Origin: an uncultured Gammaproteobacteria bacterium
GTDB taxonomy: Bacteria; Patescibacteriota; Microgenomatia; CAZETR01
DNA length: 64,000 nt
Assembly: GCA_964514545.1 (NCBI GenBank)
Contig: CAZETR010000033.1
Span: 1,954 to 65,953, forward strand
Direction of reading: 5' to 3'
In this document: positions 19,409 through 48,446 of the stretch, piece after piece
How positions within the stretch are numbered: the first letter of the stretch is position 1
How the letters are laid out: the number at the start of each line of letters is the position of its first letter
Translations under genes and position numbers: made by a program
The notes under the pieces: generated by a model
What the model was told of the DNA's origin: nothing
The model's input: only the letters and a program-made list of their open reading frames with translations
Database searches by the model: none

Positions 19409-19434
19409 GCCCCGGCTGGAAAACCAGCCGGGGC
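19409..19434 (-). terminator. rho-independent terminator (11-bp GC stem, AAAA loop, T5 tail on minus strand)
   Basis: GCCCCGGCTGG-AAAA-CCAGCCGGGGC perfect hairpin; minus-strand reading is followed by CTTTTTGTGG; immediately downstream of minus-strand gene 19611-20726. Confidence 0.8.
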
Positions 19435-19610
19435 CGGGGGTCTGCTCTGGAAACCAGGCAAACCCGCGATTTTAGAGATCCTTCTCCAATTGCCGGACAG
19501 GAACTACCCCGCGCGGCGGCAAATACGCCGCGAGGATGGCCCCGCCGACAGTGAAAATGAGCAGCGGTACCAAGATAGCTAAAACCACCAGATTCATGGG
19601 GTTTAGCCTA

Positions 19611-20726
19611 CTAGGGCGCGGGGGCTGTCGGGGTGACAGTAATGATAGCCCCAGGGAACATCACCTGAAGCACCGCCCGGACCACCTCCGGATCTTGGCC
19701 TGTAGTTGCTGAGAAAATCGTCCTCAAGACTTTCGCCTGGGACTCCGCATCGAGTTCGGCTTGCTGTCGACCGAACGCGGACTGCGTTGCCTCAATACTC
19801 TGACGCAGTTGCAGATTTTCTTGCTGCTGCTGGAGGCGCTCCCCTTCCAAACGCTCTTTCTCCACTTCGGACTGCGCCGCAGACTGACTATCACGGTAGG
19901 CCTGATCGCCAATTTCGACCCCGCGGATGAACACCGCGAGGATTTCAATCGGCTGACCGGCGACGGCCTTATCGATAATGCCTTTATAGATATCCGCCAG
20001 GCGAGCGCGCCCATCGGCAGACAAGATGTCATTCTGAGTCAATCCCGAACTCATCGCCCGGGCCGCACGCAGCGGCGATCCGATGAAAATCTGGGTTGCC
20101 GCGTCAGCAGAGGCCATCTCCCACAAGGCCTTGGCCGTATCATCGGTGTAAACGAATCTGAAAGACACGTCCACGTCCACGTTCGCACCGACCGGGTTGT
20201 CGTTAACTGACGCGCCCGTTAGCGTAGTTTCACACTTAAAACTGGCGCAAGCATCGGGATTGGTCAGCAGATCGGGGCGCAGAGTTCTGTAGCGGAGGAC
20301 GCCTGCAGGAAACAACAGTGTCTGTGAAACATCAATGTTGTACGTCCCCTGACTCAGAATCCGGTACTTCGTCTGGCTTTCGCGGTAAACCGCAACCAAG
20401 CCAGTCTGCACCACTGCCGCAGGAACCAGGAGAACCCAGGATTGGGCAATCTCCCGGTATTGGCCAGACGGAAGAATCTGGCCCTTGTAGAGGCCGAACT
20501 GTCCCTGCGGGACGTCTGCGATCGGCTCAACGATATCTTGGGACCCGACCGAATCGCCCGGCCGGAACAGTTGGGTGTAGGGATCCTGCTCGTTGCCTGG
20601 CGTGAACTGCTGATTGGGCGTGTAGCCGATCTCACCCGTTTGCACAACCTGGGGCCCGCCCGCACAGGACGACGCCAAAAGCGAGAGTAATACAAGCAGC
20701 GCAAACACGATCGATTTCCTGCTCAT
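19611..20726 (-). CDS. lipoprotein with SPFH/band-7 (prohibitin-like) domain
   Basis: Lipobox signal (LLASSCAGG), C-terminal SPFH-like region and coiled-coil (…EKERLEGERLQQQQENLQL…); high-GC island. Confidence 0.55.
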   Translation of the reverse strand: MSRKSIVFALLVLLSLLASSCAGGPQVVQTGEIGYTPNQQFTPGNEQDPYTQLFRPGDSVGSQDIVEPIADVPQGQFGLYKGQILPSGQYREIAQSWVLLVPAAVVQTGLVAVYRESQTKYRILSQGTYNIDVSQTLLFPAGVLRYRTLRPDLLTNPDACASFKCETTLTGASVNDNPVGANVDVDVSFRFVYTDDTAKALWEMASADAATQIFIGSPLRAARAMSSGLTQNDILSADGRARLADIYKGIIDKAVAGQPIEILAVFIRGVEIGDQAYRDSQSAAQSEVEKERLEGERLQQQQENLQLRQSIEATQSAFGRQQAELDAESQAKVLRTIFSATTGQDPEVVRAVLQVMFPGAIITVTPTAPAP

Positions 20727-21104
20727 TCCACATCCTCCATGATGTTGTTCAAGTAATTGCTGAAAAATCGATAGTCTTTCCGACGCAATCGCTCGATAAA
20801 TCTCCTCCGTTTCTTTGAAGAAATAGTAGTCAGCAATTCATTCAAGCTGCCATTCTAAGCACAAGTTATTTATGCCAAAATTGGCAGCCTGAAAGTATAA
20901 ATTGGATTTCAAAGTGCAACGATAGAGTTGACAGCACATCGACAAGATATGCGGTCAATATATCGGGCAATCCGGGTGCCAGGTCTCTACCAGCCGCGGT
21001 TTCCCGCAACTGTCAGAATACCCGACACCCGTTTTTTCAGTCAGAGGATTGCTCCCCCAGCCGGATTGCCGTGTTGTTACTTGAGATTCAAACTGGGAAC
21101 GATG

Positions 21105-22286
21105 TTACGCAGCGCGCATGATCTCGACAAGCTGGGCGGACAGCTTGTTCTCCGCCTCATGCAGTTCGCCACGACCGCGCTCGACTTCCTGACGCGCCTT
21201 TCGGTTGGCGGCGGCCGCATCGCCCAGCGCCTTCATGAGCGTCTCACCGCTCGTAACAATGGCATCAGCCATCCGATTGAGGGTCTCGACACGCAAGGCC
21301 ATCTGGCCCAGGAGCTGGGAACTTTGAGCGATCATCTGCTCATAGGCTTCCGCAGAGTCCACCGCTTGTTTGTTCATGAAGTCAATGCCCGTCTGGAGAG
21401 CGAGTTGGGCAATTTCGGCTTGCAGGGCATCGAGCTGCAGAACGACGTCGGTCTTCCACTGCGGAATGCCCATCTCCAAGAAATCGCCCAGGCCAAGCGC
21501 CACAATCGCATTGGCATTGCGCTGGCCGAGAAACCGACGCTCGTTCATGTTGCCCATGTGAATGTACGCCGGCAGCGACCCGAGCCGCTTGATGAGCAAC
21601 GGGCTGATGCCTTCGAGCCGTTCACGCTCGCCGCTGTCCACGGCCAACTTGAGGGCTTCGAGGCGATCGGTCAGCAGGTCCTTCAAGTCCTCCATGCCCG
21701 CACACAGATACAACAACTTATCCGTGCGCCCGTCGGCCTCTTCGGCCAACTGGCCATCGCGGACCACGGCCTCGATCACCAGATCGTACTGCCGCTGCAG
21801 AATGTCAATGTCCTTCTGCATCACCGCGAGGACGGTCTGAAACTGCTGGAGCGCTTCGCGGATCTCCTCGGAGATCGCGCGCACCCAGTTGACGACTTCG
21901 CGCGCCTTCGCCTTGCCCTGTGCGACTTTCTCGACAAAGCGCTGGTCAACTTTCGGCAACCTGCCGTTGACTTCGCGCATCTTGCGCGTGGCGCCCTGCA
22001 CGCCCTGGCTGACAACACCACCGTCGCGCATCTTCATGTTTTCGAGCATGGCATCCAAGCCGGGCGTCTGCTGAACATCGAAACCCTTGATCATCTCGAT
22101 GAAGAACGTGACACCGAAGTTGGAGTCCTCGAGCGCTTTCAACGCCCAGGCCTTGACTTCATCGCGCTTTCCTTGAGACAAGAGAGCACGCGCAGAGAAC
22201 TGAGGGCCGGGCGTAGTGACAGCGGCTTGGACGACTGGGACAAGTTGCTGTGAAGCAGCGGTCGGAAGGGGTAACGTGGTAGTCAT
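21105..22286 (-). CDS. TelA-like (toxic-anion-resistance / YaaN family) coiled-coil protein
   Basis: ~390 aa all-helical coiled-coil protein with TelA-like layout and C-terminal 'IPQWK…' region comparable to B. subtilis YaaN; neighbour is XpaC-like as in Bacillus xpaC-yaaN. Confidence 0.5.
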   Translation of the reverse strand: MTTTLPLPTAASQQLVPVVQAAVTTPGPQFSARALLSQGKRDEVKAWALKALEDSNFGVTFFIEMIKGFDVQQTPGLDAMLENMKMRDGGVVSQGVQGATRKMREVNGRLPKVDQRFVEKVAQGKAKAREVVNWVRAISEEIREALQQFQTVLAVMQKDIDILQRQYDLVIEAVVRDGQLAEEADGRTDKLLYLCAGMEDLKDLLTDRLEALKLAVDSGERERLEGISPLLIKRLGSLPAYIHMGNMNERRFLGQRNANAIVALGLGDFLEMGIPQWKTDVVLQLDALQAEIAQLALQTGIDFMNKQAVDSAEAYEQMIAQSSQLLGQMALRVETLNRMADAIVTSGETLMKALGDAAAANRKARQEVERGRGELHEAENKLSAQLVEIMRAA

Positions 22287-22345
22287 GCTTATTCTCCTTA
22301 TCTGACTAAGTCTGAACGTTGGAACGAGGAATATTGCTCGCTATT

Positions 22346-23458
22346 TTACTGAATAGCGGTCTTGATGGCCTCAAACACGTCGCGCTTGGGTTCGCCCACT
22401 GACTGGGGATTCGCCACGAGCCACGGAACGTCAGTGTCGCCCGGCTTGGCAGCGATGCCGCCGGCTGCAGTTCGCATACCGTACTGGCTCCAACCGAGAG
22501 CTTGCAACGTTTCATCCGTGCCAAAGATTTCGACGAGACGGTCCCCATTCTCTGTCAGACTGCCAAGCACGTGATCCGTGCTCACAGTCCACTCGGGGTA
22601 AATTCCGACGATCAGGTTGCCGTCGGACTCGCGCCGCGACTGTGGCAACTTGTTGCGCCAGCCTAGGTAGAGCGACTCAGAGCTAGCAGCCAACGGGATC
22701 GAGCCACTCTGGTAGACATAATCCTCGAACCACTCAGGACTAGACTCGGCCTGCCGAGGTTGCATAGCCCAGTTGGCTACCAGATTCGGAAGTACCGTAG
22801 GCAGGCCATTCAGATCGCACACGAGGCCGCCTTCGACACCGCCCGGCATCTGGTAATTGCAGAGCAAGAACAGGTGTTGTAAGCCACCGCTGCTTTTGGC
22901 CGGGTTAGTGTAACGGATATTCACTCGGCCAGGAATGGGCACGCCGATGTCCACCCACGCCTCCTGACTATTCATCGCCTCGATCACCGGCGCCATTTTC
23001 ATGTAGTAGGCGCCGTTCTTCCCATAGACGATGCCGCTGTCCAAAAGCGGTTGGAGAAACAGATCCCGACGGGTATAAAACAGGCCGTAGGTGCGAAAGA
23101 TTGTGTCGTGTTTTCGGACAAGCCCCGGTTTGGCGGTAGTGAAATCTTCGTACCCGCTTGCCGACCCCGGCCAGATACAATCAATGCCGGTCAGATCCTT
23201 GTCCTTCATCTCGAAGGTTCCGACGCTGATCGACTCCACATCGATATTGTAGTCAGCCAGTAGGTATTCCTTCACTTTCGCGTCGCGCAGGAAGACCTGG
23301 CCACCGAGGCAGGTAACCTTCATCGCCGGCCCGAGCGTGGGCGTCGGCGTCGGCAGGTTGGACTTTGCCTGACCCGCCAGCGAAAACGCGATGATAAGGA
23401 ACGTGGCAACGACGACAAGAACGCCAAGTCCGATAAGGAGACGTTTGTTCATGTTCAT
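22346..23458 (-). CDS. membrane-anchored periplasmic-binding-protein-like protein (paralogous to N-terminal half of the vWA protein)
   Basis: N-terminal TM then Pro/Thr linker; shared pattern with ORF 24131-25723 N-domain (K..L.D.GI…DV.W..S……RTY). Confidence 0.4.
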   Translation of the reverse strand: MNMNKRLLIGLGVLVVVATFLIIAFSLAGQAKSNLPTPTPTLGPAMKVTCLGGQVFLRDAKVKEYLLADYNIDVESISVGTFEMKDKDLTGIDCIWPGSASGYEDFTTAKPGLVRKHDTIFRTYGLFYTRRDLFLQPLLDSGIVYGKNGAYYMKMAPVIEAMNSQEAWVDIGVPIPGRVNIRYTNPAKSSGGLQHLFLLCNYQMPGGVEGGLVCDLNGLPTVLPNLVANWAMQPRQAESSPEWFEDYVYQSGSIPLAASSESLYLGWRNKLPQSRRESDGNLIVGIYPEWTVSTDHVLGSLTENGDRLVEIFGTDETLQALGWSQYGMRTAAGGIAAKPGDTDVPWLVANPQSVGEPKRDVFEAIKTAIQ

Positions 23459-24111
23459 GGCTTACTCCTCTCCGAGTCTTCGATGATGCTCCGAAGTAAT
23501 TCCGCAGCCCGCCCCGCCTTTGAGGTTGTGGTGGCAAGCTGTCGGAGCAAATTCAATTCGCTTTCGGCCGCGAGCAGCTTGCGCGCCCGGCCTTCGTCAA
23601 TACCGACTTCCAGAGCTTCAAGCGCTGTTTCCGTCTCCGGAATGTGCTGAGTTTCCAACTCCGTCATCAACGCGGCCATCTGGGAACGACTCAACGTTAC
23701 TTCACCGGTGAGCACACCCAGAACGGTCAGAAAACTATCTGAAAGCTTTTCCAGCCGCCGCACGTGAGTACCAATACCGGTGAGATCGCGCGTAACGAGC
23801 TTGGCAGCCATGCGAGCGATGTGAACCGCAATCGCCTGCAGCGCATCCTTCAATTTCGGTGAGCGCTGACTTTCAGCGATACGCTTGATTTGCGTTGCAA
23901 TCCGAGCCGTCCGCCCCAACGATTCCTCCAACGCGATGACGTCATCGGACTTGCGTAGAAACAGAAAGTACGTAACCAGCAGGCCAGCGGACGGGACAAG
24001 CCCAACCGCAACCCGAATGATTGGCGCACCGTATGGAAACAGAAATGCTGTGGCAACCATCGCGATGAGTGCTGCAGCCACAGCTAGAGAGTCAAGGATC
24101 TTTTGATTCAT
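23455..24111 (-). CDS. XpaC-like (5-bromo-4-chloroindolyl phosphate hydrolysis family) membrane protein
   Basis: Two N-terminal TM helices followed by helical cytoplasmic domain, ~210 aa, 4-nt overlap with downstream gene; classic partner of TelA/YaaN. Confidence 0.4.
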   Translation of the reverse strand: MNQKILDSLAVAAALIAMVATAFLFPYGAPIIRVAVGLVPSAGLLVTYFLFLRKSDDVIALEESLGRTARIATQIKRIAESQRSPKLKDALQAIAVHIARMAAKLVTRDLTGIGTHVRRLEKLSDSFLTVLGVLTGEVTLSRSQMAALMTELETQHIPETETALEALEVGIDEGRARKLLAAESELNLLRQLATTTSKAGRAAELLRSIIEDSERSKP

Positions 24112-24130
24112 GCAACACTCTCCTTGGCAA

Positions 24131-25723
24131 CTAATTGTTGCCCTTGAACAGGCGGAAGCACTTCACAAGCGCCTCCTGCCCGCCGCGGCCGTCACAGACC
24201 GCGCCGTGCGTGTAGTCGGCGATTTCTTTCATCGCCCCTTCGCTGGCAGAGCCGAAAAGGATCGTGTAGATGGGCACATTGCTTTGATCACCCTCGTAAG
24301 TCCTCTTCAGAGAGCCAAACGACGTGCCGACCGCGTTGTGCTCACCGTCGGTCAGAAGAATAACTGCCGGAAGCTGTCCAGGCTGAGCGCCCGTCGAAAC
24401 AATCTCCACCGCTCGTTGGGCGCATCCATAGATGTTGGTTCCGCCGGCAAGTTGCTGATTCTCAACGCTTGACAGGAGCGAGGCAAACTGCACAGAATCA
24501 TTGCCTTGAATTGAATACTCAGCCAGAACATTCTCGGCAAAAGCAAGCACGTAAGTGGTGTCGCCGCCTGACGCCTGCAAGAGGTACTGCGCCGCCAGGG
24601 TTTGATCCAGCAGGAGTTTCATCGCCGCCCTGAGTTGAGTCTCACCAGTCCCCTGCATGCTACCGGAGTAGTCAAGGCAAAAGACTGTGAACGACGGCTT
24701 GCGTAAAACAGTCTGGTACATATCGAGGGCGCGGGCAATTATCGTGTCTTTTGGCAATTCGATCAGCGCAAACTCGGTTTGCGCATCGATGCCCCACGCC
24801 GGATTGAAAACGCTCGGATCGGGATTCTCCACCCGCATACCGACGCGCCCTGTCCGGAACCCGAGAGACTGCAGTTTGGCACGCACGTCGTCACTGGTGA
24901 GGTATTCGGCCAGTTGTTTGAACTGGGCCTGCTTTTCCTCACTGGCGCCCGACACCCACCCAAGCTGGTAGTTCTGCATGCCGACAGCGTTGCTGACGTA
25001 AAAGACCGTCATCGGCGCCGCACCCTTGCCGACCAGTTCTTGATTGGTCGCGATGAGCATGCTTTCCGGCAGCACTATAGCGTTGTATTGCCCGCCACCG
25101 GAAGTGCGGTCCGCCACGAATGCAGCTTTGAGGTCGCTCGCGTTGCTGGCAGTCCGGCTCACCGCGGATAGAATCGTCCGCAGCGCGTCGACATCACCGC
25201 CCGTCGCCTGCCACAAGGCAAGGTAGAAATTGGCGCCGGCATCGTCCTGCGACGCACTCGGCATGGCCAGCTTGACCTTGCCCGCATTGATCGCAGCAAT
25301 GATGTCATTGACCGTGATGCCCGTCTGAGAATTCCAGCCAAGTTCACTGACCAGACCGGGATCCATGGCGAACACCACGTAGGTGCGCATCACCGAGGTC
25401 TTATCCCGGACAAGGCTTCCCGGCAACCAGATCGGTGAGGCCGCCCAGAAGACATCCACGTCACCGGGGTTCTGTGCCGTATACGCCAGGACCTTAAGTT
25501 TGACCTCAACAGAGCCCAGATAGCGTGTAGATACCGCAACTCCGGTCTTTTCAGTGAACGCTTTGAAAATGCCAGCGTCCTCGAGAAGCTTCACCTCACT
25601 CGCCGCATTGATGCGCAGAGAGCTCGGATCAGCCGGCGGAGTGACATTGGGCAACAAATCAGGCCCGCACGCCACGACAGCCAGATACAGTAGTACGACG
25701 GGAAACAGACATAACCGCTTCAT
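24131..25723 (-). CDS. lipoprotein with N-terminal PBP-like domain and C-terminal von Willebrand factor A (vWA) domain
   Basis: Lipobox (LAVVACG), MIDAS motif 'DYSGSM', second vWA motif '…LLTDGEHN…'. Confidence 0.7.
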   Translation of the reverse strand: MKRLCLFPVVLLYLAVVACGPDLLPNVTPPADPSSLRINAASEVKLLEDAGIFKAFTEKTGVAVSTRYLGSVEVKLKVLAYTAQNPGDVDVFWAASPIWLPGSLVRDKTSVMRTYVVFAMDPGLVSELGWNSQTGITVNDIIAAINAGKVKLAMPSASQDDAGANFYLALWQATGGDVDALRTILSAVSRTASNASDLKAAFVADRTSGGGQYNAIVLPESMLIATNQELVGKGAAPMTVFYVSNAVGMQNYQLGWVSGASEEKQAQFKQLAEYLTSDDVRAKLQSLGFRTGRVGMRVENPDPSVFNPAWGIDAQTEFALIELPKDTIIARALDMYQTVLRKPSFTVFCLDYSGSMQGTGETQLRAAMKLLLDQTLAAQYLLQASGGDTTYVLAFAENVLAEYSIQGNDSVQFASLLSSVENQQLAGGTNIYGCAQRAVEIVSTGAQPGQLPAVILLTDGEHNAVGTSFGSLKRTYEGDQSNVPIYTILFGSASEGAMKEIADYTHGAVCDGRGGQEALVKCFRLFKGNN

Positions 25724-25940
25724 GTAGCCTCCTTAACTATCTAATAGCTAATGGACCAGTAGGTAAGACTATTGCCAATATCTTCGGGAAATTTTCCCTC
25801 CTTTGAATCTCAAGTTGTTAAAGAGCTAATTAGGCTGTAACTCCACAAAAAAGCACCGCAAAAGTGGCGCTTGTTCTGTGAAGTTTACATCGGGCGCGAT
25901 TTTATCAGCTTCCAACCCCTAAGTCAAATCCTATGGGTTA

Positions 25941-26723
25941 CTATTTTCCTATCGCCATCCAGTTTACCTTGACCGAAGAGTTAACGCCAGCTTTATATAC
26001 GAATTGAGTATTAGATACGCTTCTAATTAAAACCGAAAATGGAGTTCCCGTCACCGAGATAGGAGTCGCAAGTACAACGGGAGCTGATGTGTATGGCTGG
26101 CTAAAGATCACCGTTCCCTTGCCAGTAGCGTCTGATGTAGAAACACCGAAAAGCAGAGTGTTACCTGATTCAACATTTAGGGCTAAGGGTCCTGTTGCTC
26201 CGGTTGCTCCAATAGATCCAGTAGCCCCTGTCGGCCCTACCGGACCTGCAACTCCAATCGGCCCGGTCACACCGGTTGTCCCCAACAGACCTGTCGCCCC
26301 GGTTGCTCCATCTGCCCCCGCCACTCCCGTCGGTCCCGTAGTTCCCATATATCCGGCAATTCCCGAGAATCCAGTATAACCGAACAGTCCTGTGAAGCCG
26401 GTATATCCAGCCTGCCCGGACGGTCCTGTCGGTCCGGTTGTTCCAGTGGGTCCAGTGCGACCCGCAAAACCGGAAGCACCCGTGTAGCCGGCCATCCCGG
26501 TTGGTCCGGTAGCGCCCGTTAACCCAGTCGGGCCGGTTTTACCCGCTGACCCAGACATACCCGTAAATCCAGCCGGACCGGACGGACCCGTAGGACCGGT
26601 CGCTCCAGTCGGACCTGTAATTCCTGAGGAACCAGTAAAACCAGCCTGCTGAGCCAAAGCAACTCTCGCAAAAACACCAATTCCCAACACTCCGAATACT
26701 AAAACTATAATTAAGCGCTTCAT
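25941..26723 (-). CDS. secreted collagen-like triple-helix repeat protein ((G-X-T)n, BclA-like) with ~80-aa C-terminal globular domain
   Basis: Signal peptide, ~50 uninterrupted Gly-X-Thr/Pro triplets ([19 protein letters not shown]…), non-repetitive C-terminus. Confidence 0.75.
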
Positions 26724-26868
26724 TTAAACCAATTCTTTCACTTGAATGTATTACGCTCTAAGTTACCTGTCAAGTAGTATCGACCTCCTGCCAAAGAGCA
26801 ACTATCTAAACTCCGTTCCGAGATTCTTAACCACATTGACCCCGTAATGAAGGTGCTCAAACTAACTT

Positions 26869-34706: not shown

Positions 34707-36413
34707 TTATTGGAGGTCATTTTTAGCCTTTTTTACATCTACCAGCTTAGATTCAGGCTCCCCTCTTCTTTTCCATTCTACCTGGGTACCGGTCTTGGTA
34801 GACACGACCAGCCGAACCGGAATTCCGATTAGGTCCGCGTCGGCGAATTTCTCGCCGGCCGAGACATCCTCTCTGTCATCCCACACCACGTCGATACCCG
34901 CCTTTACCAATTGGTCGTAAACTGACTTCGCTTGTTCACTCACCCCGATATTAATCAGGTGTGCCCGAAACGGCGCAACAATCTCCGGCCACAAAATCCC
35001 CTTATCGTCGTGCTGGGCTTCAACGATTGCAGCCAACGTCCTACCAATCCCGATGCCATAGCATCCCATGTAGTACGGTTTTGCTGATCCATCCTCGTCC
35101 ATAAAAGTTGCCCCTTTCATAAGCCTGGTATAGTGATAACCAAGCTGAAAGATGTTACCCACTTCAATCCCGGTCTTCTGGGTCATCTTTTGACCCAAAT
35201 CACTAATATATCCCGCCTTCGCCAGAGCGATATCGCCCTCGATGTCCGGTACATAATCGCGGTCAATATTGATATTAACCGCATCTCGGTTCAGTTTGTT
35301 CGCTCCTCCGTACGCATTTCTAACAGTCCGAAGAGAAATGTCTCCGACAATCATGGCTTTTCCCTTAAGCCCCACCGGACAAATAAATCCCGGCTCGCTC
35401 CCAATGCTACGAATCTCTTCCGCCGTCGCGTGCCGTAAGCTAATCGAGCCTGTCACTTGAGCCAGTTTGACTTCGTTGACTTCCAAATCCCCTCGGATCA
35501 CCGCCAGAATCAATCTGCCTTTCTCGTCCACCATCATCAAATCCTTAATTTGCTGCCACATGGGAAGACCGTGCAATTTGACTCCGTCCTCCATAGTAGT
35601 TCCCCGAACAGCATCCACAACCGCGTATTCCTTAATCGGCTCGTCTAAATTCTTCTCGTCTCTTTGAAACTTGGCCACCTCTTCATGGGCACAGTACGAC
35701 CCGTCGGGGGTCACTAAAAACTTACTCTCCCCCGCTTCCGACTCGACCACGAACTCATGACAATACTCCCCGCCGATATATCCATTGTCCGCCTCAACGA
35801 TATAAGTTTTGAGGCCCAGTCTTTCAAATATCCGGGTGTAAGTCTGCTCCATCAGCTTATAAGTTCTTTTAAACTCTTCTTCATTCCGATCAAACGAGTA
35901 GGCATCCTTCATTACAAACTCCCGCACCCGAAGTAGCCCTCCCCGTGCCCGCAACTCATCCCGAAACTTCAGTGAAAATTGATAAATATTAAAGGGCAGA
36001 TCACGGTAAGAAATCTGGAATTTACGCACCACGTCCACAAACATTTCCTCCGCCGTCCCTCCCAGAGCAAACTCGGCCTCCCGTCGGTCCTTGACTTTCA
36101 TCAGTTCAAACCCCGCGGTATTTGTTCTGTTAGTTTCCTTCCACAGCTCCAGAGGGTGTAAAACCGGAACTGACATTTCCTGGGCCCCGGCTCTATCCAT
36201 CTCTTCACGAACAACCTGCATAATCCTATCGTGGACGCGAAACCCCAAAGGCAAAAACGAGTACCTGCCGGCCGCAATCTCCCGAATAAACCCAGCCCGA
36301 TAGAGTAGCGTAGTCGATGTGTTTACGGCCCCCCTCTGGGCTTCTTTAACTGTTTTGCCAAACAACTGTGAGTAACGCATATAGTAAGTATATCTGAATT
36401 TAAAAGGAATCAA
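34707..36413 (-). CDS. proS: prolyl-tRNA synthetase (bacterial type with editing domain)
   Basis: Class II motifs and INS editing domain; N-terminus MRYSQLFGKT… matches bacterial ProRS. Confidence 0.9.
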   Translation of the reverse strand: MIPFKFRYTYYMRYSQLFGKTVKEAQRGAVNTSTTLLYRAGFIREIAAGRYSFLPLGFRVHDRIMQVVREEMDRAGAQEMSVPVLHPLELWKETNRTNTAGFELMKVKDRREAEFALGGTAEEMFVDVVRKFQISYRDLPFNIYQFSLKFRDELRARGGLLRVREFVMKDAYSFDRNEEEFKRTYKLMEQTYTRIFERLGLKTYIVEADNGYIGGEYCHEFVVESEAGESKFLVTPDGSYCAHEEVAKFQRDEKNLDEPIKEYAVVDAVRGTTMEDGVKLHGLPMWQQIKDLMMVDEKGRLILAVIRGDLEVNEVKLAQVTGSISLRHATAEEIRSIGSEPGFICPVGLKGKAMIVGDISLRTVRNAYGGANKLNRDAVNINIDRDYVPDIEGDIALAKAGYISDLGQKMTQKTGIEVGNIFQLGYHYTRLMKGATFMDEDGSAKPYYMGCYGIGIGRTLAAIVEAQHDDKGILWPEIVAPFRAHLINIGVSEQAKSVYDQLVKAGIDVVWDDREDVSAGEKFADADLIGIPVRLVVSTKTGTQVEWKRRGEPESKLVDVKKAKNDLQ

Positions 36414-37335
36414 AATAATTTCCTAGTTCACGGGCTTTGTCAAAAGCCGCAATCACCCCAGCCCGAACAACCCCATTTAAGTTATTATTCTCAAACGCCA
36501 TCATGGCAGCTTCGGTGGTACCACCTTTAGATGTCACGGCCAATCTAAGTGAATCCAACTCCCTCTCCGACTGATCCAGTAACGTAGCTCCACCAATCAA
36601 AGTTTCTTTCACCAATTTCTTCGCTCGCTCGTAATCTATGCCCAGCTCCACGGCAACTTCGACCATCGACTCGGCAAACCTAAAGAAATATGCCGGCCCA
36701 GAACCGGATATCGCCGTTACGGCATCAATTTCCCGGTCGCTAGAAACAAATACCTCCACTCCCAAACGGTTCAGAAGAAAGGCTAGTTGTTTCGCCTGCC
36801 CTACAGTAACCTCATCACTTACGGTCCACCCAAAAACACCTCGCCCAACTGACACAGGGGTGTTTGGCATGACCCGGGCCACTGCCTGATTTATATTTCC
36901 AATCCATTTCTTGATAGTCGCAATTCTGACCCCGGCCGCAAAAGATACCAAAAGCTTTCCTTCAAGCGAAACCTCCTTCTCTCTCCAACTCTCCAACTCT
37001 TCCTTTAACTGCTTCTGCTTAAGCCCCAGAAATACAACGTCACAGTCGGAAACAAGATCGATATTGGTCTTAGCAATCTGGATCTTACCGGCTAATCCTA
37101 CCTTCAAAACCTTCTCAAGTGTGTTCTCCTTGGTCCTGTTACAAACAAATATCTCGTTTTTTCCAAGAACTTGACTTGTAACTAATCCCTTCACCAGTGC
37201 GACACCAATACTACCCAATCCCACGATCCCAATGCGACCAATTTCAGCCGATCCTTGTTCATATTCAAATTGTGTATTTACCTCGTTCATCACAAAAAAC
37301 CTCGTCTCTACCCGACACAATAAAGTATCGAGCAA
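36400..37335 (-). CDS. proC: pyrroline-5-carboxylate reductase
   Basis: Rossmann 'IGIVGLGSIGVAL', C-terminal dimerisation motif '…SKGGTTEAAM…'; 14-nt overlap with proS. Confidence 0.8.
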   Translation of the reverse strand: MLDTLLCRVETRFFVMNEVNTQFEYEQGSAEIGRIGIVGLGSIGVALVKGLVTSQVLGKNEIFVCNRTKENTLEKVLKVGLAGKIQIAKTNIDLVSDCDVVFLGLKQKQLKEELESWREKEVSLEGKLLVSFAAGVRIATIKKWIGNINQAVARVMPNTPVSVGRGVFGWTVSDEVTVGQAKQLAFLLNRLGVEVFVSSDREIDAVTAISGSGPAYFFRFAESMVEVAVELGIDYERAKKLVKETLIGGATLLDQSERELDSLRLAVTSKGGTTEAAMMAFENNNLNGVVRAGVIAAFDKARELGNYFDSF

Positions 37336-37612: not shown

Positions 37613-38731
37613 TTAATACAATTTTGCTCCTGTAAAAAGACGCAGTAAATCACGAGCTGTAATTAAAATTATCAATGCTATTAAAACTACCATTCCGACA
37701 GTGTGGAGCCATCTTTCAAACCGCGGCACGACCCGCCTTCCAAAAATGGCCTCAATAATAATGAATAGCAATCGGCCTCCATCCAAAGCCGGAATCGGCA
37801 TAATGTTTAAAACCGCCAGGTTAACTGACAATATCCCCACCAATTGCAGTAAATTTAGAAATCCGGTTTTGGCAACTTCACGAGTCACCTCAAAAATTCC
37901 CACCGGGCCGGAAATATCCTGCGGCACCCGGCCAAAGCGGACCAACTCAAATATCAGTTTGCCAAACCCCGACAAAACCATCCTCGTCCAACCGAACGCC
38001 TCGCCTACTCCATAGTAACCCGCACGGAAGGGCATCTGCCACCAGGGAAAAAACTTGGGAACAACTTGTGAGATCGCCACTCCGAGCGGCCCCTCCCCCT
38101 GCGGAGGACTGGTCCTGGGAGTCATCCTGATGGCAATCTTTTCTCCACTTTTTCTCTCTATCTCTATCTCGATCTCACGGCCGTTTGCCTGCTTTGTCGC
38201 CTGAATAAATTCATCGCTCCTACTAATCAGCTTGTCGAAAACCTCCGAGCCCGAAATCACAAACTTGAAATTCGTAACCTTGTCCCCTTCTTTGAGTCCA
38301 GCTGTCTCCGCAGGAGAATTCTTTGCAATCCCAACCACAAAGACATTGTCTGTCTTTGTCGGAATTCCAAGTTTGGCATAGAGAAAAGTAAACACCCCAA
38401 TTGCCAAGAGAAAATTCATAGCAACACCAGCCACAATTACCGAAGCCCGGGTTAACTTGGATTTAGCAAAAAATGCCCTATCCTTCAAATCTTGATTAAT
38501 GTCACCGTCCTGGTCATCTTCTCCCAACAGCTTCACAAACCCACCAATCGGTAACGCGTTTATGGAAAAAACTGTCTCGCCAATCTTTCGTCCCCAAATC
38601 CGCGGAGGCAAACCAAATCCAAATTCCTCAACACCGATTCCAGCTCTTTTGGCCATTAAAAAATGTCCCAGCTCGTGTATTAATACCAAAACCGAGAGCA
38701 CGGCTAAAAAGATGAGAATTGAAAATATCAT
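37613..38731 (-). CDS. rseP: RIP site-2 metalloprotease RseP (M50) with PDZ domain
   Basis: HEXXH 'HELGHFLMA', PDZ, C-terminal LDG motif. Confidence 0.8.
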   Translation of the reverse strand: MIFSILIFLAVLSVLVLIHELGHFLMAKRAGIGVEEFGFGLPPRIWGRKIGETVFSINALPIGGFVKLLGEDDQDGDINQDLKDRAFFAKSKLTRASVIVAGVAMNFLLAIGVFTFLYAKLGIPTKTDNVFVVGIAKNSPAETAGLKEGDKVTNFKFVISGSEVFDKLISRSDEFIQATKQANGREIEIEIERKSGEKIAIRMTPRTSPPQGEGPLGVAISQVVPKFFPWWQMPFRAGYYGVGEAFGWTRMVLSGFGKLIFELVRFGRVPQDISGPVGIFEVTREVAKTGFLNLLQLVGILSVNLAVLNIMPIPALDGGRLLFIIIEAIFGRRVVPRFERWLHTVGMVVLIALIILITARDLLRLFTGAKLY

Positions 38732-38772: not shown

Positions 38773-39342
38773 TTACACCGTGACCAGTTCTTCCTCCTTT
38801 TTCTTCCCCAGCTCCTCAATTCGAAAAACGCACCGGTCAGTTTCCTCCTGTAGTTGCTTTTCTACCCTGACTTGGTCATCCTCGGTAATCTCTTTGGCTT
38901 CCTGGGCCCGTTTCAACTCCCCCATTTTGTCGTGCCTGATCTGGCGAATCGAAATCCGTGCAGCCTCTAACTTTTGATGCAAAAGTTTGACATATTCCTG
39001 CCGCCTCTCGGCCGAAAGCGAAGGAACTGCAATACGGATCAGCGAACCGTCTATAGTCGGATTTAACCCCACGTTTGCCTCAGCAATCCCCTTTCTGATA
39101 TCCCCAATAATCGATTCGTCCCAGGGCTGAATCGTAATCGTCTGCGGATCAGTAACATTAATTGATCCCACCTCCAAAACCCTAAGTTTCTGCGTCCCCC
39201 CATACGCCGGAACGATTATGTTTTCGACCAGTGCACTTGTCGCCCGGCCGGTCCTAATCCCCGCAATGTCCGATGCAAAGGAATCAACGCTCCTTTGCAT
39301 CCTTTGCTTTAATTCATCTAGTGAAAGTGAAAGCATTCGCAA
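38773..39342 (-). CDS. frr: ribosome recycling factor
   Basis: Full-length Frr signature (…IRTGRA…, …QIRHDKM…). Confidence 0.9.
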   Translation of the reverse strand: MRMLSLSLDELKQRMQRSVDSFASDIAGIRTGRATSALVENIIVPAYGGTQKLRVLEVGSINVTDPQTITIQPWDESIIGDIRKGIAEANVGLNPTIDGSLIRIAVPSLSAERRQEYVKLLHQKLEAARISIRQIRHDKMGELKRAQEAKEITEDDQVRVEKQLQEETDRCVFRIEELGKKKEEELVTV

Positions 39343-39364
39343 ACAAATTATACACTACCAGATT

Positions 39365-40513
39365 TTAGAAATCCCAGGTTAAAAGATATATATCGTGCCT
39401 GGTATCCTCCCCAGCCTTCAACATCTGGGCCTTCGAAATTAACTCCAAAGCCCTGACCCAAACTGGTTCATTTTTTTCGGCAATAGGCCAATAATTTTCC
39501 AGCGAATTTGCCACTAAAAATTGCAATTCAGGCGGTTGTTCTTGGGTATGCCGTACACCGACTACCGCAACTGCATGGTCAGCAAAAATCCTCATAAATA
39601 GGCCTCCTTTACGCTGCTCCATTAATTTTATTGCCTCCCCCCAGTTGAAATCCGCATGGACGTCAAACCCCTTTTCAGCCATATAGTCGAGCCACTTACC
39701 ACCGAAAGTCCTGTACCTCGTCCCCTCGCCTTGCGGAATTCGCTGCTGCATCTCTGTAATATCTACGGGTTTAATATCTGCCCCTTGGGCAAGAGCCGCT
39801 TGGGCTAAGTTATAGCTTGCATACAGCACGCATTCCACGCCGGTTTGCATCGTAACCCTGTCAAGCATTCGAATTTCCGGAAGAAAATGCCTGGTCACCT
39901 GAAAACTAGTTTCAGCCGCTTCAAAATCCTGAAGTTCGTCTACTCGCTTACTCAAGTCAGATAAATATGCTAATAATTGATCGAGCGATCTTCCCTCAAT
40001 CTCAGAAGGCGGAATTCCTAATGCAGTTGCCAACCGCACCGCCCGCATTGGATTAACCTTAGGCATACCCAGGCTAATCACATTAAGAATATCATCACCG
40101 CCAACGACTAGCTCCTTTGTCTCTTCAAAAATAATTCTGATTATTTCACTAGCCGGAGCAGTCTCTGGAAATTGATCTAGAATTCTAATCACATCTGCAA
40201 TTGACTGATCAGTGCTGCCAGCGACCTTCGGACCCGGAAGGTGGTCTATGCGAATCTGGGTGAGAAGATCAGAATCAGGATCCTGTTCCCGAACAAGCGC
40301 GATCAACTTAACAAGGGCATCGCTATCCCCCCTACCCATAATCCTATCTATAATCGACTTGAAATCAAATGTTCCAGCCCCGGTGTTCATTCTCTCTGGT
40401 TCACCCAATCCAGACAGCTTGATAAAAGTCCTTAACCCTAGTATTTCGTCCTCCCTGTTTGGCAAGACTGGCTTTTTAGAAGGTTGGAAATCTGTATGAT
40501 CTTCAGAATACAT
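39365..40513 (-). CDS. hypothetical protein with C-terminal papain-fold (C39-like) cysteine-peptidase signature, occupying the usual pyrH position
   Basis: C-terminal 'Q…GVECVLYASYNLAQAAL' (Cys) and 'ADHAVAVVGVRH' (His) with C39_2-like spacing; N-terminal ~200 aa unassigned. Confidence 0.35.
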   Translation of the reverse strand: MYSEDHTDFQPSKKPVLPNREDEILGLRTFIKLSGLGEPERMNTGAGTFDFKSIIDRIMGRGDSDALVKLIALVREQDPDSDLLTQIRIDHLPGPKVAGSTDQSIADVIRILDQFPETAPASEIIRIIFEETKELVVGGDDILNVISLGMPKVNPMRAVRLATALGIPPSEIEGRSLDQLLAYLSDLSKRVDELQDFEAAETSFQVTRHFLPEIRMLDRVTMQTGVECVLYASYNLAQAALAQGADIKPVDITEMQQRIPQGEGTRYRTFGGKWLDYMAEKGFDVHADFNWGEAIKLMEQRKGGLFMRIFADHAVAVVGVRHTQEQPPELQFLVANSLENYWPIAEKNEPVWVRALELISKAQMLKAGEDTRHDIYLLTWDF

Positions 40514-40526
40514 GGTTCAATTAATT

Positions 40527-40988
40527 CTACACTGCCAATCTCTTAAACTCCGCCACCACAATCTTCTCCCCCGTCTTTCCAGACACTTCCTTAACCAATT
40601 GATCAATGGTCTTTCCGGCATCACGAATATATGGTTGGCCCAATAGTTCCTCGACGCTTTGGGGATCCATCGAGGCTACTTGCTTGGCAATCTCTTCACC
40701 TAGAAGTTTGACCTCATCTAGTCGCGCCACAAAATCCGTCTCGGTACCGATTACGACCATTGCGCCGACCGTTCCAGTGTGGTGGAGGTACATAAATACC
40801 CGTCCGGATTTAACTTCCCGCTCCGCTGCCTTTTTCTCAGCCCTCTCAATTCCCTTCTGTTCCAAAATCTTCACGGCTTTGGCAAAATCTCCCCCCGTTT
40901 CCGTGAGGGCCCGCCGGCAGTCCATAATTCCTGCGCTGGTCTTTTCGCGAAGTTCCTTAATTTGATCAATGGTTACAGTCTTCTTCAT
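40527..40988 (-). CDS. tsf: elongation factor Ts (short form)
   Basis: N-terminal UBA-like 'IKELREKTSAGIMDCRRAL' EF-Ts signature. Confidence 0.8.
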   Translation of the reverse strand: MKKTVTIDQIKELREKTSAGIMDCRRALTETGGDFAKAVKILEQKGIERAEKKAAEREVKSGRVFMYLHHTGTVGAMVVIGTETDFVARLDEVKLLGEEIAKQVASMDPQSVEELLGQPYIRDAGKTIDQLVKEVSGKTGEKIVVAEFKRLAV

Positions 40989-42110: not shown

Positions 42111-42842
42111 CTAACCAGGCGTAAACTTGACCATTTCACTCTCCCCGATTGCCAACGCAACAAACCCTCGATTTCTACCCAGCATCTGCTCATCTTTTCG
42201 CTTGGCCATATAGAGAAGGCCGTCTACCCTTTTTCTTAACTCATCGGCACTTTCGCTCCCGTCATCTATACTTGCACCAATGCTTACTGTGACCGATCCA
42301 AAGTCAGACGGCAATCTAGCCATTTCAGCCAGAGATTTGGCGCAAACCTCTCCAACCTGACGAACAACTTCAATTAACTCCTCCTCTGAAACATCGGGGA
42401 TCACCACCAAAAACTCCTCTCCACCATCCCTACCTATCACCCAACCGTCCGACAGAGAATTTAAAATCTCTGCAAGTGCCAACAAAACCTTATCACCATC
42501 TGGATGACCGTAAGTATCGTTCACCTGTTTAAAGTGATCGACGTCCATCAATATCACTCCCACTTTTGAGTTATGTCTTCTCTGCAGAGATAGAGCGTCC
42601 TCCAGCCACTCTCTTATTCCTGTTTGATTCAACAGACCAGTCAACCTATCAACCCTAGTCAATACCTCAATTTCCAAACGCTCCTCAACTAGAATTCTAG
42701 CAAACTCTTCTCTCAATAACGTCCCGTCCACGATTTTATCGTGCATTTCTCCATACCTTACGTCTAGCGCCTCACTATGCAATCGCGCTCTATCTGGAAG
42801 AGAAAGCCTAGGCTTCTCCCGCCTTTCTCCCGCCTCGCTCAT
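42111..42842 (-). CDS. GGDEF-domain diguanylate cyclase
   Basis: 'GGEEF' active site, upstream 'DVDHFKQVNDTYGH' motif. Confidence 0.8.
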   Translation of the reverse strand: MSEAGERREKPRLSLPDRARLHSEALDVRYGEMHDKIVDGTLLREEFARILVEERLEIEVLTRVDRLTGLLNQTGIREWLEDALSLQRRHNSKVGVILMDVDHFKQVNDTYGHPDGDKVLLALAEILNSLSDGWVIGRDGGEEFLVVIPDVSEEELIEVVRQVGEVCAKSLAEMARLPSDFGSVTVSIGASIDDGSESADELRKRVDGLLYMAKRKDEQMLGRNRGFVALAIGESEMVKFTPG

Positions 42843-45336: not shown

Positions 45337-46275
45337 TTATACCCTACCTGAAGCCAAAAGACCCGCCGACGTCTCGCCTTCCCGGCCCATCCGTGTGTCA
45401 ATAACTCCCAAACTTGCCCACTCGGCAAACATTTGAATCCTCATCGCCTCCAAATCCAACCCTTCTTCCCGCCGATGACCGTCAATTATCTCAACCACCC
45501 GCTGGAGGGTCAGCTCTCGTCCAAACAAGGGAACATTAATTCTATGAAATCTGGCTTTAATCTCGGCTTCTCCCAACAGTTTTCTGCGGGAGTCAGCTCC
45601 TGCTCCCAATATCTCTCTATATGCTTCATCCCCGGCCATCACCCCCACAATCGAGTCGTACATCTGAATCATTATTTCCCAGGGCTTATCAAAACCATCA
45701 AAGACAACCACTCTATCCCGAAACTGACCAACCAGCTTTAAATAGTTCTGTCTAATTTGCTGGTAAACTCCAAGCGGCGCCCGATCCCGGTAATTTCTCT
45801 TCATCATCATCCCCTCGGAAGCCCTAACTCTCATCATGGACTCTTCGGGTAACAGATCCGTGTAAAAAATTTTCGTCGGATAAGCGCCTATAAAGGGTTT
45901 TTGCACCGAAGCTAAGTAATCGTCACTGCCTGCCCCGTCTACAGACTGAATTGCCAGGGTCGACATCCAACTCCTATCACCCAATAGTATTCCGGTCGGA
46001 TTTTCCGCCATCCAAGGCAAAATCTCTTTATAAACCAATTCTGATCTCTGGGCGCTAAACATAAACAGGTTAGTTAGTCCATGCGGATGCGCCTCGTGCC
46101 ACTGCTCCTTGCCAAACATCATCTCCCGTATCATCATGCCGATCGGCGTCCCTCCAGGTTCAACCAAAGTTTTGACAGGCACACCAAAGGCTTTCTCCAA
46201 AAGCGGGGGCAAGAGTCCGTGCAGTGTGGTCTTGCCCACCCCCTCGGGTCCTTCGAGTGCGATGCTAATTGCCAT
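45337..46275 (-). CDS. tmk: thymidylate kinase-like protein with ~90-aa C-terminal extension
   Basis: P-loop 'LEGPEGVGKTT', 'EPGGT' dTMP-binding motif. Confidence 0.55.
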   Translation of the reverse strand: MAISIALEGPEGVGKTTLHGLLPPLLEKAFGVPVKTLVEPGGTPIGMMIREMMFGKEQWHEAHPHGLTNLFMFSAQRSELVYKEILPWMAENPTGILLGDRSWMSTLAIQSVDGAGSDDYLASVQKPFIGAYPTKIFYTDLLPEESMMRVRASEGMMMKRNYRDRAPLGVYQQIRQNYLKLVGQFRDRVVVFDGFDKPWEIMIQMYDSIVGVMAGDEAYREILGAGADSRRKLLGEAEIKARFHRINVPLFGRELTLQRVVEIIDGHRREEGLDLEAMRIQMFAEWASLGVIDTRMGREGETSAGLLASGRV

Positions 46276-46278
46276 AAT

Positions 46279-47844
46279 TTATGAATCTCTAAGCTGTAGA
46301 AATCTGAAGATGGGCGCATTGGCTTTCTTTAGAGCCAGTGCAAATTCACTGCTTGGAGAGCTGATGTCCGGATGCGCGTTGGGGCTAGCTCTCAGTTTAA
46401 GGAAATGAAATACATCCAACCCGCTTATCCGCATCGTTACTGGAATTAGAGACGCCCTAGAAACAAACAGAGGCCCAAAAACTCTCCCGTATTGGGGACC
46501 AATATCCTCTATCAAGTAATAACCTTGATTGTTCAGCTCAATCCCCTTTTGGTATAAGTCTGTAAGACCAAGTTCCCGATACAACCTCGGAGTGCTAAAC
46601 CCGTCGGGAATAAATTCACCAACTATATATGTTGCCAGCCTGTGCCTAACCATTTCAAAAAACGCACCCACCGACAGATTAAAGCCGGCCGTAATCTGGA
46701 CCATTTCCAATTCCGCCGGCGGTCTATCATGAATGGTAAAACCTTCGAAAATTCCCTGGATTGCAGTCTCAACGCTCTCCGGAGATAAAAATTGAACTTC
46801 TCGATAAACGCGGGTAAAATCCTGCTCACCGCCGTTTGCCAGAAAAGCCGCCAAAAACATCTCCTCAGCGTGCGGACTGCAATCCATCCATAAGAACTCT
46901 GATTTCTCGGAGAGAATCGGCCTACCAGCCCCTAAATCCAGCTGTTCACAAATTCTTCTCCTTCTCTCGGGCAACCCTTGGGTATACGGAGATGGCTCTA
47001 CACGTCGCATTAGTGTCGGCAGTCCCTCCCTGGCCAGATTTCGCAACCTAATGGCAATTTCAGCTGTTTCCGGAAACTCACTAGCAGCAAGTTTAGCTAT
47101 CCCCTCCCGAAGGGCCAATGCGCTATTTGGATGCATCGCAAGATGATTTAAAAAGCTGCCATTTGTAACCTGTCTCGCATCATCCAGCGAATGTGAGAGC
47201 GCCCTCCATCTAAACTGCCATTGCTTCTCTCCTTCCCGCCTGGTTAGGGATTCTAAGTAATGCTCAAGCCCTCTAAATGTCAGCTCTTTGTAAATGTCGT
47301 AAATTTCCTGGTTCACATTACCCAAAGTCTCACCAATACCAGCCCTAACAAGCTCATCAGGAATACGCCAATAATGTTCAGGAAAGACCCCTCCCCTGCT
47401 AGAAAAAGCCTCAAAAGCTCCATGTCTTAATGAGCAAATATCCCTCAAACCCGCTAAGACAGAAATCCCCTCCATGATAATTGGCGGATCCCCACCGAAT
47501 TCCCCAGGCCCGGCATTTACCTGTTCAATAATACTAGCATGCGACACTTCCTTCGAAGACCTAGCCGCCAAAGCGTAAAGCAGAAAAAACGCGCTGCTTG
47601 CACTTTCCTCCTCGCCTTCAACCTCGATTTTCTTTCCCCGCTCGGTCAGCACCATTCTTTGAAGTTCACTATAGGAAGTTGCGGTTCGATCCCCCAAGGC
47701 AACCACCCTCCCCCTCTCTTCTCTGGTAAGTGCCCCTTCCCGATCCAGGAAATCTACAAGAGGCCGATACTCCACAAGACTGGGGTCAGGAGTCCTTTCT
47801 CTCATAATTGACTCGGCCAGGTTCTCGCTTATTCTCTCCCCCAT
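46279..47844 (-). CDS. long ThyX-like protein (flavin-dependent thymidylate synthase domain in C-terminal half, unassigned N-terminal ~300 aa)
   Basis: 'H…P.E……FFEMVRHRLATY…STPRLY' (ThyX RHR motif region) and 'LKLRASPNAHPDIS' (cf. LRxDxHAQxEI); context between dcd and tmk. Confidence 0.45.
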   Translation of the reverse strand: MGERISENLAESIMRERTPDPSLVEYRPLVDFLDREGALTREERGRVVALGDRTATSYSELQRMVLTERGKKIEVEGEEESASSAFFLLYALAARSSKEVSHASIIEQVNAGPGEFGGDPPIIMEGISVLAGLRDICSLRHGAFEAFSSRGGVFPEHYWRIPDELVRAGIGETLGNVNQEIYDIYKELTFRGLEHYLESLTRREGEKQWQFRWRALSHSLDDARQVTNGSFLNHLAMHPNSALALREGIAKLAASEFPETAEIAIRLRNLAREGLPTLMRRVEPSPYTQGLPERRRRICEQLDLGAGRPILSEKSEFLWMDCSPHAEEMFLAAFLANGGEQDFTRVYREVQFLSPESVETAIQGIFEGFTIHDRPPAELEMVQITAGFNLSVGAFFEMVRHRLATYIVGEFIPDGFSTPRLYRELGLTDLYQKGIELNNQGYYLIEDIGPQYGRVFGPLFVSRASLIPVTMRISGLDVFHFLKLRASPNAHPDISSPSSEFALALKKANAPIFRFLQLRDS

Positions 47845-48446
47845 ATACTATTTAAATTAGAACTAACGGTACCCTTCTGGCCCTGATAGTGGCTTTTGAC
47901 CTTCTTGTGACCATAGGGATATTGAGCCGGGCTAGTCATCTGGATAAAACTGATTTGACAAATCTTCATGCCTTTGTAGAGGGCAATCGGTAAATTTGAG
48001 AGGTTGGAAATCTCAAGCGTCAACTGACCCTCAAACCCCGGATCGACATAACCGGCTGTGGAGTGAATTACAATCCCGATCCGCCCCAAACTGCTTTTTC
48101 CCTCCAGCCGGGCCACAAGATCAACCGGAATTCTGACCCATTCAATTGTCGTTCCCAAGACAAATTCCCGCGGGTGAATGATCAATGGCTCGTCCCTCTT
48201 AATTTCTATCCGTTTCATTAAACGCTTTTGATCTTTCCTGGTGTCGATGAGCGACTGGCTGTGAGAATCGAATATTAAAAAATCAGAGCCTAAGTGAAGA
48301 TCCACGGAAGAGGGCTGGACGCAATTGTCCCGAAACGGCTTAACCTGAAGCCTCTTTTCTCGATCTTTATCTCTAACTCTCTGCCTAATGTCCCTGTCCG
48401 ACAATACCATCCCGAAATTTATAGTAAACAATATGCAATGAAGCAA
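47829..48446 (-). CDS. dcd: dCTP deaminase
   Basis: N-terminal 'LSDRDIRQ…' and 'VDLHLG' β-clasp motifs of Dcd/Dut superfamily. Confidence 0.8.
   Translation of the reverse strand: MLHCILFTINFGMVLSDRDIRQRVRDKDREKRLQVKPFRDNCVQPSSVDLHLGSDFLIFDSHSQSLIDTRKDQKRLMKRIEIKRDEPLIIHPREFVLGTTIEWVRIPVDLVARLEGKSSLGRIGIVIHSTAGYVDPGFEGQLTLEISNLSNLPIALYKGMKICQISFIQMTSPAQYPYGHKKVKSHYQGQKGTVSSNLNSIWGRE

Follow-up and report, generated by a model that had tools for sequence, protein, structure and literature searches.

The present analysis concerns a 64-kb stretch of contig CAZETR010000033.1, termed here the window (the whole stretch of DNA that was analysed, 64,000 nucleotides), and in particular an open reading frame for 382 amino acids, ORFX, which lies between the genes for elongation factor Ts (EF-Ts; tsf) and ribosome recycling factor (RRF; frr). 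An initial inspection of the sequence (the original prediction) took ORFX to have replaced pyrH, the UMP kinase gene, in an rpsB-tsf-pyrH-frr operon.

The ORFX locus

The order rpsB, tsf, ORFX, frr given in the original prediction is confirmed by open reading frame calls together with Pfam and NCBIfam matches. On the minus strand the window has, in this order, a gene for a GGDEF protein, rpsB, a short tsf, ORFX, frr, a gene for an M50/RseP protease, proC and proS. The features of the locus are as follows.

42111-42842, minus strand: GGDEF diguanylate cyclase gene, between folD and rpsB; overlaps the folD stop codon
41077-41874, minus strand: rpsB, first gene of the cluster (Ribosomal_S2, E = 4e-83; TIGR01011)
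40527-40988, minus strand: tsf, upstream neighbour of ORFX, encoding a short EF-Ts of 153 amino acids (TIGR00116, 109 bits vs a cut-off of 104)
39365-40513, minus strand: ORFX, ATG start, 382 amino acids; member of a two-domain orphan family
39343-39364, minus strand: ORFX-frr spacer, which includes TGTATAAT at 39354-39347, an extended -10-like element 5 nt before the frr TTG
38773-39342, minus strand: frr, downstream neighbour of ORFX (RRF, E = 5e-49; TIGR00496)
37613-38731, minus strand: M50/RseP protease gene (Pfam/NCBIfam)
36400-37335, minus strand: proC (pyrroline-5-carboxylate reductase), between the M50 gene and proS; overlaps the proS start

The tsf stop codon is separated from the ORFX ATG by 13 bp, and the ORFX stop codon from the frr start by 22 bp. 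No terminator-like site was found on this strand across tsf, ORFX and frr, and a promoter-like site is present upstream of rpsB at 41956-41928. Co-transcription of ORFX with these translation factor genes, which the original prediction had taken as given, is therefore plausible from the short gaps and the lack of a terminator. The TGTATAAT element, for its part, could drive a near-leaderless frr transcript.

Absence of pyrH and the tsf-frr junction in related genomes

A tblastn search of the window with Escherichia coli PyrH gave a best match of E = 0.17. A PyrH profile of 59 sequences (58 recovered PyrH sequences and the query), used with the HMMER filters off, had its best match among the open reading frames of the window at E = 0.037 and 8 bits, in an unrelated reading frame, and left ORFX unmatched. 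These results bear out the observation in the original prediction that pyrH is missing from the window. The query can be considered valid since it recovers pyrH in 60 of 80 rpsB loci from bacteria outside the candidate phyla radiation (CPR). The control loci were taken from an S2 search of genome contigs and all belong to distant bacteria (at most 52% identity); the canonical order S2-Ts-PyrH-RRF is found in 55 of the 80.

By comparison of RRF sequences, the window belongs to the CPR Microgenomates group. Among named relatives, its RRF is closest to those of Gottesmanbacteria, Woesebacteria and a ‘Microgenomates group bacterium’, with 59-63% identity. The frr neighbourhoods of five Microgenomates relatives were sampled, which provide nine loci with DNA sequence and one gene table without DNA. 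In these, tsf is followed directly by frr (L087/L088, a JGI contig of 3.8 kb, L089/L090, L094-L096 and L097/L098); relatives with the adjacency include L087, Gottesmanbacteria GW2011_GWA1_48_13 and Microgenomates GW2011_GWC1_39_7b. Downstream of frr an M50 protease gene is present after zero to two variable hypothetical genes. No pyrH was found within 5-6 kb of frr in the relatives' loci, and ORFX is absent between tsf and frr in all nine, i.e. its position in the operon is not conserved in related CPR genomes. There is no ‘pyrH slot’ in the cluster of the relatives examined, where the cluster is rpsB-tsf-frr-rseP. The concept of an occupied pyrH position, central to the original prediction, thus fails: tsf directly precedes frr, without pyrH, in every one of the nine Microgenomates loci. 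A literature search on pyrH or UMP kinase in CPR and Patescibacteria produced nothing relevant.

The nearest relative, L087, is the most instructive. Its gene order agrees with that of the window from topA through glyA-folD-rpsB-tsf-frr-M50-proS-HIT-YqeY-YbeY-dnaX, and protein identities to the window are 70% for S2, 75% for EF-Ts, 69% for RRF and 62% each for the M50 protease and ProS. The tsf-frr spacer of L087 is 44 bp and has no ORFX. Both of its ends resemble, by eye, the spacers on the tsf and frr sides of ORFX; at the frr side the likeness is between the frr-proximal part of the ORFX-frr spacer and the frr-proximal end of the L087 spacer. The best interpretation is that ORFX was inserted between tsf and frr in a Microgenomates cluster and replaced nothing, because the related loci lack both pyrH and ORFX between these two genes. 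Flanking repeats or another mobile-element signature were searched for around the insertion and none was found. The guanine plus cytosine (GC) content of ORFX is 0.47, the same as that of the surrounding genome, and neither the window nor the loci of the relatives contain a second copy or paralogue.

A small protein family

ORFX has no family assignment in Pfam (E ≤ 1), NCBIfam, PADLOC or PHROGs. Five homologous clusters were found in a collection of 5.8 billion sequences (90% clusters), and profile scoring of all 1.84 billion 50% representatives resulted in 23 family clusters. Every cluster that was looked up is a singleton. Full-length members are nearly all 330-450 amino acids long and share a two-part architecture. 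A metagenome search added only one new fragment to the family, and a profile search of genome contigs with the family alignment showed no relative. Profile searches against PDB sequences, with alignments of the full-length protein, the C-terminal domain or the N-terminal domain, gave noise-level matches only. Neither a signal peptide nor a membrane segment was found in ORFX, whose maximal Kyte-Doolittle mean over 19 residues is 1.14. The ORFX family is very rare and previously undescribed, and it is a candidate for a new MEROPS/Pfam family.

The C-terminal domain

The C-terminal part of ORFX contains the two motifs quoted in the original prediction: Q223 followed by ECVLYASYNL with C228, and DHAVAVVGV with H313. 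The domain and its predicted catalytic residues, with their occurrence in 17 aligned C-terminal domains, are the following.

39365-39892, minus strand: C-terminal papain-fold domain, residues 208-382 and stop codon (about 175 amino acids); predicted local distance difference test score (pLDDT) mostly 85-98
39845-39847, minus strand: Gln223 codon (CAA); predicted oxyanion-hole Gln, five residues before the catalytic Cys; Gln in 17/17
39830-39832, minus strand: Cys228 codon (TGC); predicted nucleophile, at the start of helix 228-242; Cys in 17/17
39575-39577, minus strand: His313 codon (CAT); predicted general base, at the start of strand 313-322, motif DHAVAVVG; His in 17/17
39506-39508, minus strand: Asn336 codon (AAT); predicted third catalytic residue, after strand 330-335, motif VANS; Asn in 13/17, Asp in 4/17

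The mean column identity of the 17 domains is 36%. Conservation of Q223, C228 and H313 is far above chance as judged from this alignment, because it has only four invariant columns and these residues account for three of them. Cys228 is the sole cysteine of ORFX.

An AlphaFold2 model computed with 20 sequences (pLDDT 86.3, predicted template modelling score 0.83) places Cys228 at the N-terminus of a helix and His313 and Asn336 on or after adjacent strands, which is the papain arrangement. When the model was compared with the PDB by Foldseek, ranks 1-36 were all papain-like. The best match, to staphopain, has E = 6.9e-3, a probability of 1.00 and a template modelling (TM) score of 0.54 on target length; procathepsin H, ananain, cathepsins S, L and V, phytochelatin synthase and UfSP1 are also among the matches. 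Papain-like proteins likewise occupy ranks 1-3 in the viral structure database BFVD: an AvrRpt2-like protease (E = 4.4e-4), a Gordonia phage endolysin and a Peptidase C1.

Sequence comparisons point in the same direction at a lower level. With hhalign, the segment GGL..DHAVAVVG..VANS..YW pairs with GGI..DHAVAAVG..IKNSWGTGW of papain, such that His313 is opposite papain His159 and Asn336 opposite papain Asn175; the pairwise E is 0.0076 at a probability of 5%, over 34 columns only, around the His/Asn motif. His313 also aligns with the His of dionain-1 in a PDB profile match of E = 0.68. With the Pfam model of Peptidase C1 (PF00112), one of 20 members gives a match, below threshold (E = 0.069).

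That the C-terminal half is a papain-fold Cys/His enzyme is well supported at the level of the predicted fold, since the Q-C-H-N/D tetrad, the AlphaFold topology and the uniformly papain-like Foldseek matches all agree.

The N-terminal domain

39893-40513, minus strand: N-terminal domain, residues 1-207; all-alpha by AlphaFold secondary structure

The N-terminal domain of about 207 residues is without assignment, as the original prediction stated: no Pfam, NCBIfam or significant PDB sequence match was found, and the search of 1.84 billion proteins yielded no relative of the domain outside the ORFX family. It is strongly acidic, with an isoelectric point (pI) of 4.5 in ORFX and 4.0-5.0 in all homologues. 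Conserved within it are the motif E23-x2-G26-x-R28-x-F30...G35...P39 and an ‘RLAxxLGI’ helix, and a G-x-G-x-PE motif is conserved in the family near the N-terminus. A long helix, residues 177-206, joins the domain to the catalytic domain. In the predicted structure the two domains are packed in a fixed manner, which agrees with a function in substrate selection and with one in latency alike.

A DNA-binding, helix-turn-helix role was considered from weak matches of residues ~140-190 to the NrtR winged helix-turn-helix and to RpoN. It was rejected, as the matches are not significant and the domain is acidic throughout the family.

Genomic neighbourhoods of the homologues

Seven distinct contexts of the ORFX family can be compared, and no neighbour recurs among them. 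In the following list X denotes ORFX or its homologue.

Window: tsf, X, frr
L004: PRTase_3 gene, X, ychF, with a 3-bp gap between X and ychF
L091: NUDIX gene and, further along, a 90-amino-acid open reading frame, a PIN gene and X
L092: X, convergent with a tyrosine recombinase gene
L093: X, divergent from an unannotated gene for 255 amino acids, with a Memo gene beyond
L001-L003: PNPOx gene, X; ruvX and a sortase gene are convergent with X
L099: X, with coaD/tsaD divergent on one side and a VanW gene convergent on the other

In five of the seven contexts the next gene downstream has the opposite orientation, and the ORFX gene is often its own transcription unit. Translation genes adjoin ORFX or its homologue in two contexts, about what chance would give by a rough estimate, with more than one-tenth of the genes of a small CPR genome belonging to this class. 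A dedicated role of ORFX in translation is not supported, because the neighbours differ in all seven contexts.

Homologues of genes around ychF in the window, a NUDIX gene among them, are common to the L004 and L091 loci. These window genes are:

14025-14738: NUDIX gene
11721-12860: ychF
11106-11711: gene in the ychF region

This hints, on thin evidence, at the ychF region as an older home of the ORFX gene. The contig L004 carries the closest homologue with a resolved context; its positions 1030-2046 and 3758-4555 encode a Peptidase_C39_2+TPR protein and PRTase_3, a ComF-like phosphoribosyltransferase, the latter directly upstream of the ORFX homologue.

Proposed function of ORFX

It is quite probable that ORFX is a soluble, probably cytoplasmic papain-fold cysteine hydrolase of clan CA type, a member of a very small, undescribed family confined to CPR-like genomes. 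Its gene would have landed in the tsf-frr spacer and would now be expressed from the rpsB-tsf-frr operon as an accessory gene. In the proposed mechanism, Cys228 would attack an intracellular protein or peptide at a peptide or isopeptide bond, with His313, oriented by Asn336, acting as the base and Gln223 forming the oxyanion hole. The acidic helical N-terminal domain might select a substrate, probably a basic one, or it might hold the enzyme latent in the manner of a prodomain.

Several points weigh against this proposal. The E-values of the fold searches are weak (6.9e-3 for the PDB, 4.4e-4 for BFVD) and the TM scores modest, at most 0.54 on target length. There is no significant profile match to any characterised peptidase, with none in Pfam and dionain-1 (E = 0.68) as the best in the PDB. 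The role given to the N-terminal domain is purely inferred. The direction of the genomic change, i.e. insertion here as opposed to loss in all relatives, is drawn from parsimony over nine relatives. Finally, the term ‘peptidase’ itself goes beyond the fold, as papain-fold enzymes include acyltransferases, amidases, deamidases and transglutaminases. A papain-fold activity other than that of a peptidase, e.g. that of an amidase, acyltransferase or deamidase, is an alternative for ORFX. Assignment to one particular peptidase family is not supported.

Another explanation, which appears rather unlikely, places ORFX among accessory conflict or effector proteins, as a toxin-like or defence cysteine protease or as an effector directed against the host cell of this episymbiont. 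It would move between variable regions and be kept latent by its N-terminal domain. The distribution of the family is patchy and very rare, with singleton clusters and a different position in every genome. The best viral fold match is an AvrRpt2-like, effector-type protease, and neighbours of the kind found in variable regions are present, e.g. PRTase_3, NUDIX, the PIN gene that follows a 90-amino-acid open reading frame (a possible toxin-antitoxin pair) and the tyrosine recombinase, although the recombinase of L092 could be a housekeeping Xer. Against this, neither a PADLOC defence model nor a PHROG family matches; ORFX shows neither a signal peptide nor a domain recognisable as serving secretion or toxin delivery; and no partner such as an immunity gene is conserved. 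The composition of ORFX, moreover, matches its surroundings (GC 0.47), and repeats or a mobile-element signature do not flank it.

The original prediction also raised the possibility of a lineage-specific protein associated with the ribosome or with translation. In its explicit form this would be a protease that acts on a ribosomal protein or a translation factor, as Prp does in trimming the N-terminal extension of L27, with the acidic N-terminal domain docking onto a basic ribosomal protein. The tight packing between tsf and frr with gaps of 13 and 22 bp and no terminator, the L004 homologue that ends 3 bp before the gene for the ribosome-associated ATPase YchF, and the acidity of the N-terminal domain in all members are consistent with such a role. 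However, none of the nine related loci has the gene in its rpsB-tsf-frr cluster, and homologues are found in six other, unrelated neighbourhoods. Five of the seven contexts have no adjoining translation gene (PNPOx/RuvX, PIN, integrase, Memo and coaD/VanW), and three translation neighbours per ~14 slots is near the chance expectation by a rough estimate. The extreme rarity of the family, 23 clusters, also fits a core process poorly. A translation-linked protease is thus improbable, and the claim of the original prediction does not hold up. Slightly less probable still is a more elaborate proposal in which ORFX founds a clan CA family whose acidic N-terminal domain targets a basic translation component, and in which the placements beside tsf/frr and ychF would signify that, in a few ultra-small CPR bacteria, ORFX takes part in processing ribosomal proteins or translation factors or in their turnover.

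The specific peptidase family named in the original prediction, C39, fares worse. Its papain-fold part stands, on the tetrad, the AlphaFold model and the Foldseek matches; the C39 part does not. ORFX as a genuine C39/C39_2 bacteriocin-processing peptidase that cleaves double-glycine leaders would agree with the Q-x4-C motif and a Cys/His/Asn(Asp) arrangement of the general C39 kind, and with the G-x-G-x-PE motif near the N-terminus of the family. The Peptidase_C39_2-TPR gene is only 2.5 kb from the L004 homologue, and hhalign aligns QTGVEC of ORFX with QTFNNC of its product, albeit not significantly (profile comparison, probability 0.2%). Yet ORFX itself has no Peptidase_C39 or C39_2 match; none of 20 family members matches PF03412 or PF13529 even at E ≤ 5; no C39 domain is among the top 50 PDB fold matches; and in no context is a gene for an ABC transporter or a leader peptide adjacent. 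A C39 enzyme is accordingly very improbable. The last possibility, that ORFX is a functional UMP kinase substitute at an ancestral pyrH position, has in its favour only the location between tsf and frr and the lack of pyrH in the window, and is effectively refuted by a papain-like fold with no homology to UMP kinase or the amino-acid-kinase fold, by the failure to detect a nucleotide-binding motif, and by relatives in which both pyrH and ORFX are absent from the site, such that nothing was displaced.

The main value of the reading of ORFX as an inserted papain-fold hydrolase gene is corrective. Gene-order reasoning from model bacteria, as in the ‘pyrH slot’, fails in Microgenomates, and what appeared to be a replacement is an insertion. 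What is new is a very rare papain-fold hydrolase family whose acidic helical domain is also new, and by which the catalogue of CPR-specific proteins grows a little; with neither substrate nor conserved partner to go on, the family opens no larger question.

Other features of the cluster and the window

ORFX is not the only variable gene around the cluster. L087 has no gene between folD and rpsB, where the window has the GGDEF gene, which makes the latter a second lineage-specific insertion, and it has three small unannotated open reading frames where the window has proC. In other Microgenomates (L089, L094, L097 and L098), unannotated genes for 180, 68, 302 plus 247, or 496 amino acids are situated between frr and the M50 gene, and one unannotated gene for 304 amino acids lies between folD and rpsB. 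None of these variable hypothetical genes around the cluster in other Microgenomates is homologous to ORFX. Lineage-specific insertions seem to have a hotspot in the rpsB-tsf-frr cluster.

The GC skew is negative in every 1-kb bin of the window and reaches a cumulative value of -13 over the 64 kb, and nearly all genes are on the minus strand. This is the same disparity as that of the Microgenomates order UBA1400 (Chazhemtobacterium Ch65, Collierbacteria and Beckwithbacteria), where a one-strand G/C disparity was taken to suggest largely unidirectional replication (PMC7143001).

A compositional island at 19000-26800 has a GC content of 0.54-0.60 vs ~0.47 elsewhere. It encodes an SPFH/Band_7 protein, a weakly TelA-like protein, two unknowns, a solute-binding+VWA protein and a protein with collagen triple-helix repeats, and may have been acquired horizontally. 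The thymidylate kinase reading frame (45337-46275, minus strand) encodes 312 amino acids vs 210 in L087; its Pfam domain covers residues 7-193 only, which leaves a C-terminal extension. It is followed by a gene for 521 amino acids that has no Pfam match (46279-47844) and then by dcd (47829-48446).

Comparison with known systems

The closest folds to the ORFX C-terminal domain are found in the papain-like families of clan CA: staphopain (C47), the cathepsins, ananain and papain (C1) and the AvrRpt2-like protease (C70). In common with these, ORFX is predicted to have a compact domain of ~170 amino acids, with the Cys at a helix N-terminus after the oxyanion-hole Gln and the His and Asn/Asp on adjacent strands. 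The ORFX sequence DHAVAVVG...VANS parallels DHAVAAVG...KNSW of papain; the His-to-Asn spacing, however, is 23 residues in ORFX, whereas it is 16 in papain. ORFX further differs from papain-type enzymes in having no signal peptide and, with its single Cys, no disulfides, and from clan CA families in general in having no significant sequence-profile match to any of them. Where the cathepsins and staphopain have a prodomain of their own type, ORFX has, fused at the N-terminus, a new acidic helical domain of ~207 amino acids.

The likeness to C39/C39_2 peptidases consists of the papain fold, the small size of the domain and the order Gln...Cys...His...Asp/Asn, but the tetrad is clan-wide and not specific to C39, and ORFX fails both Pfam models. 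Classical C39 peptidases differ also with respect to the ABC exporter, which is neither fused nor adjacent to ORFX or its homologues (window, L001-L004, L091-L093 and L099).

Two further comparisons are of position. PyrH of the canonical rpsB-tsf-pyrH-frr operon shares with ORFX its place between tsf and frr, without any sequence or fold similarity. Prp, whose gene lies between rplU and rpmA, offers a positional analogy only, that of a cysteine protease gene in a translation cluster. Prp has a different fold, a Cys-His dyad and a conserved position beside the gene of its substrate; ORFX has no match to the Pfam Peptidase_Prp model, and its position is conserved neither in homologues nor in relatives of the window.

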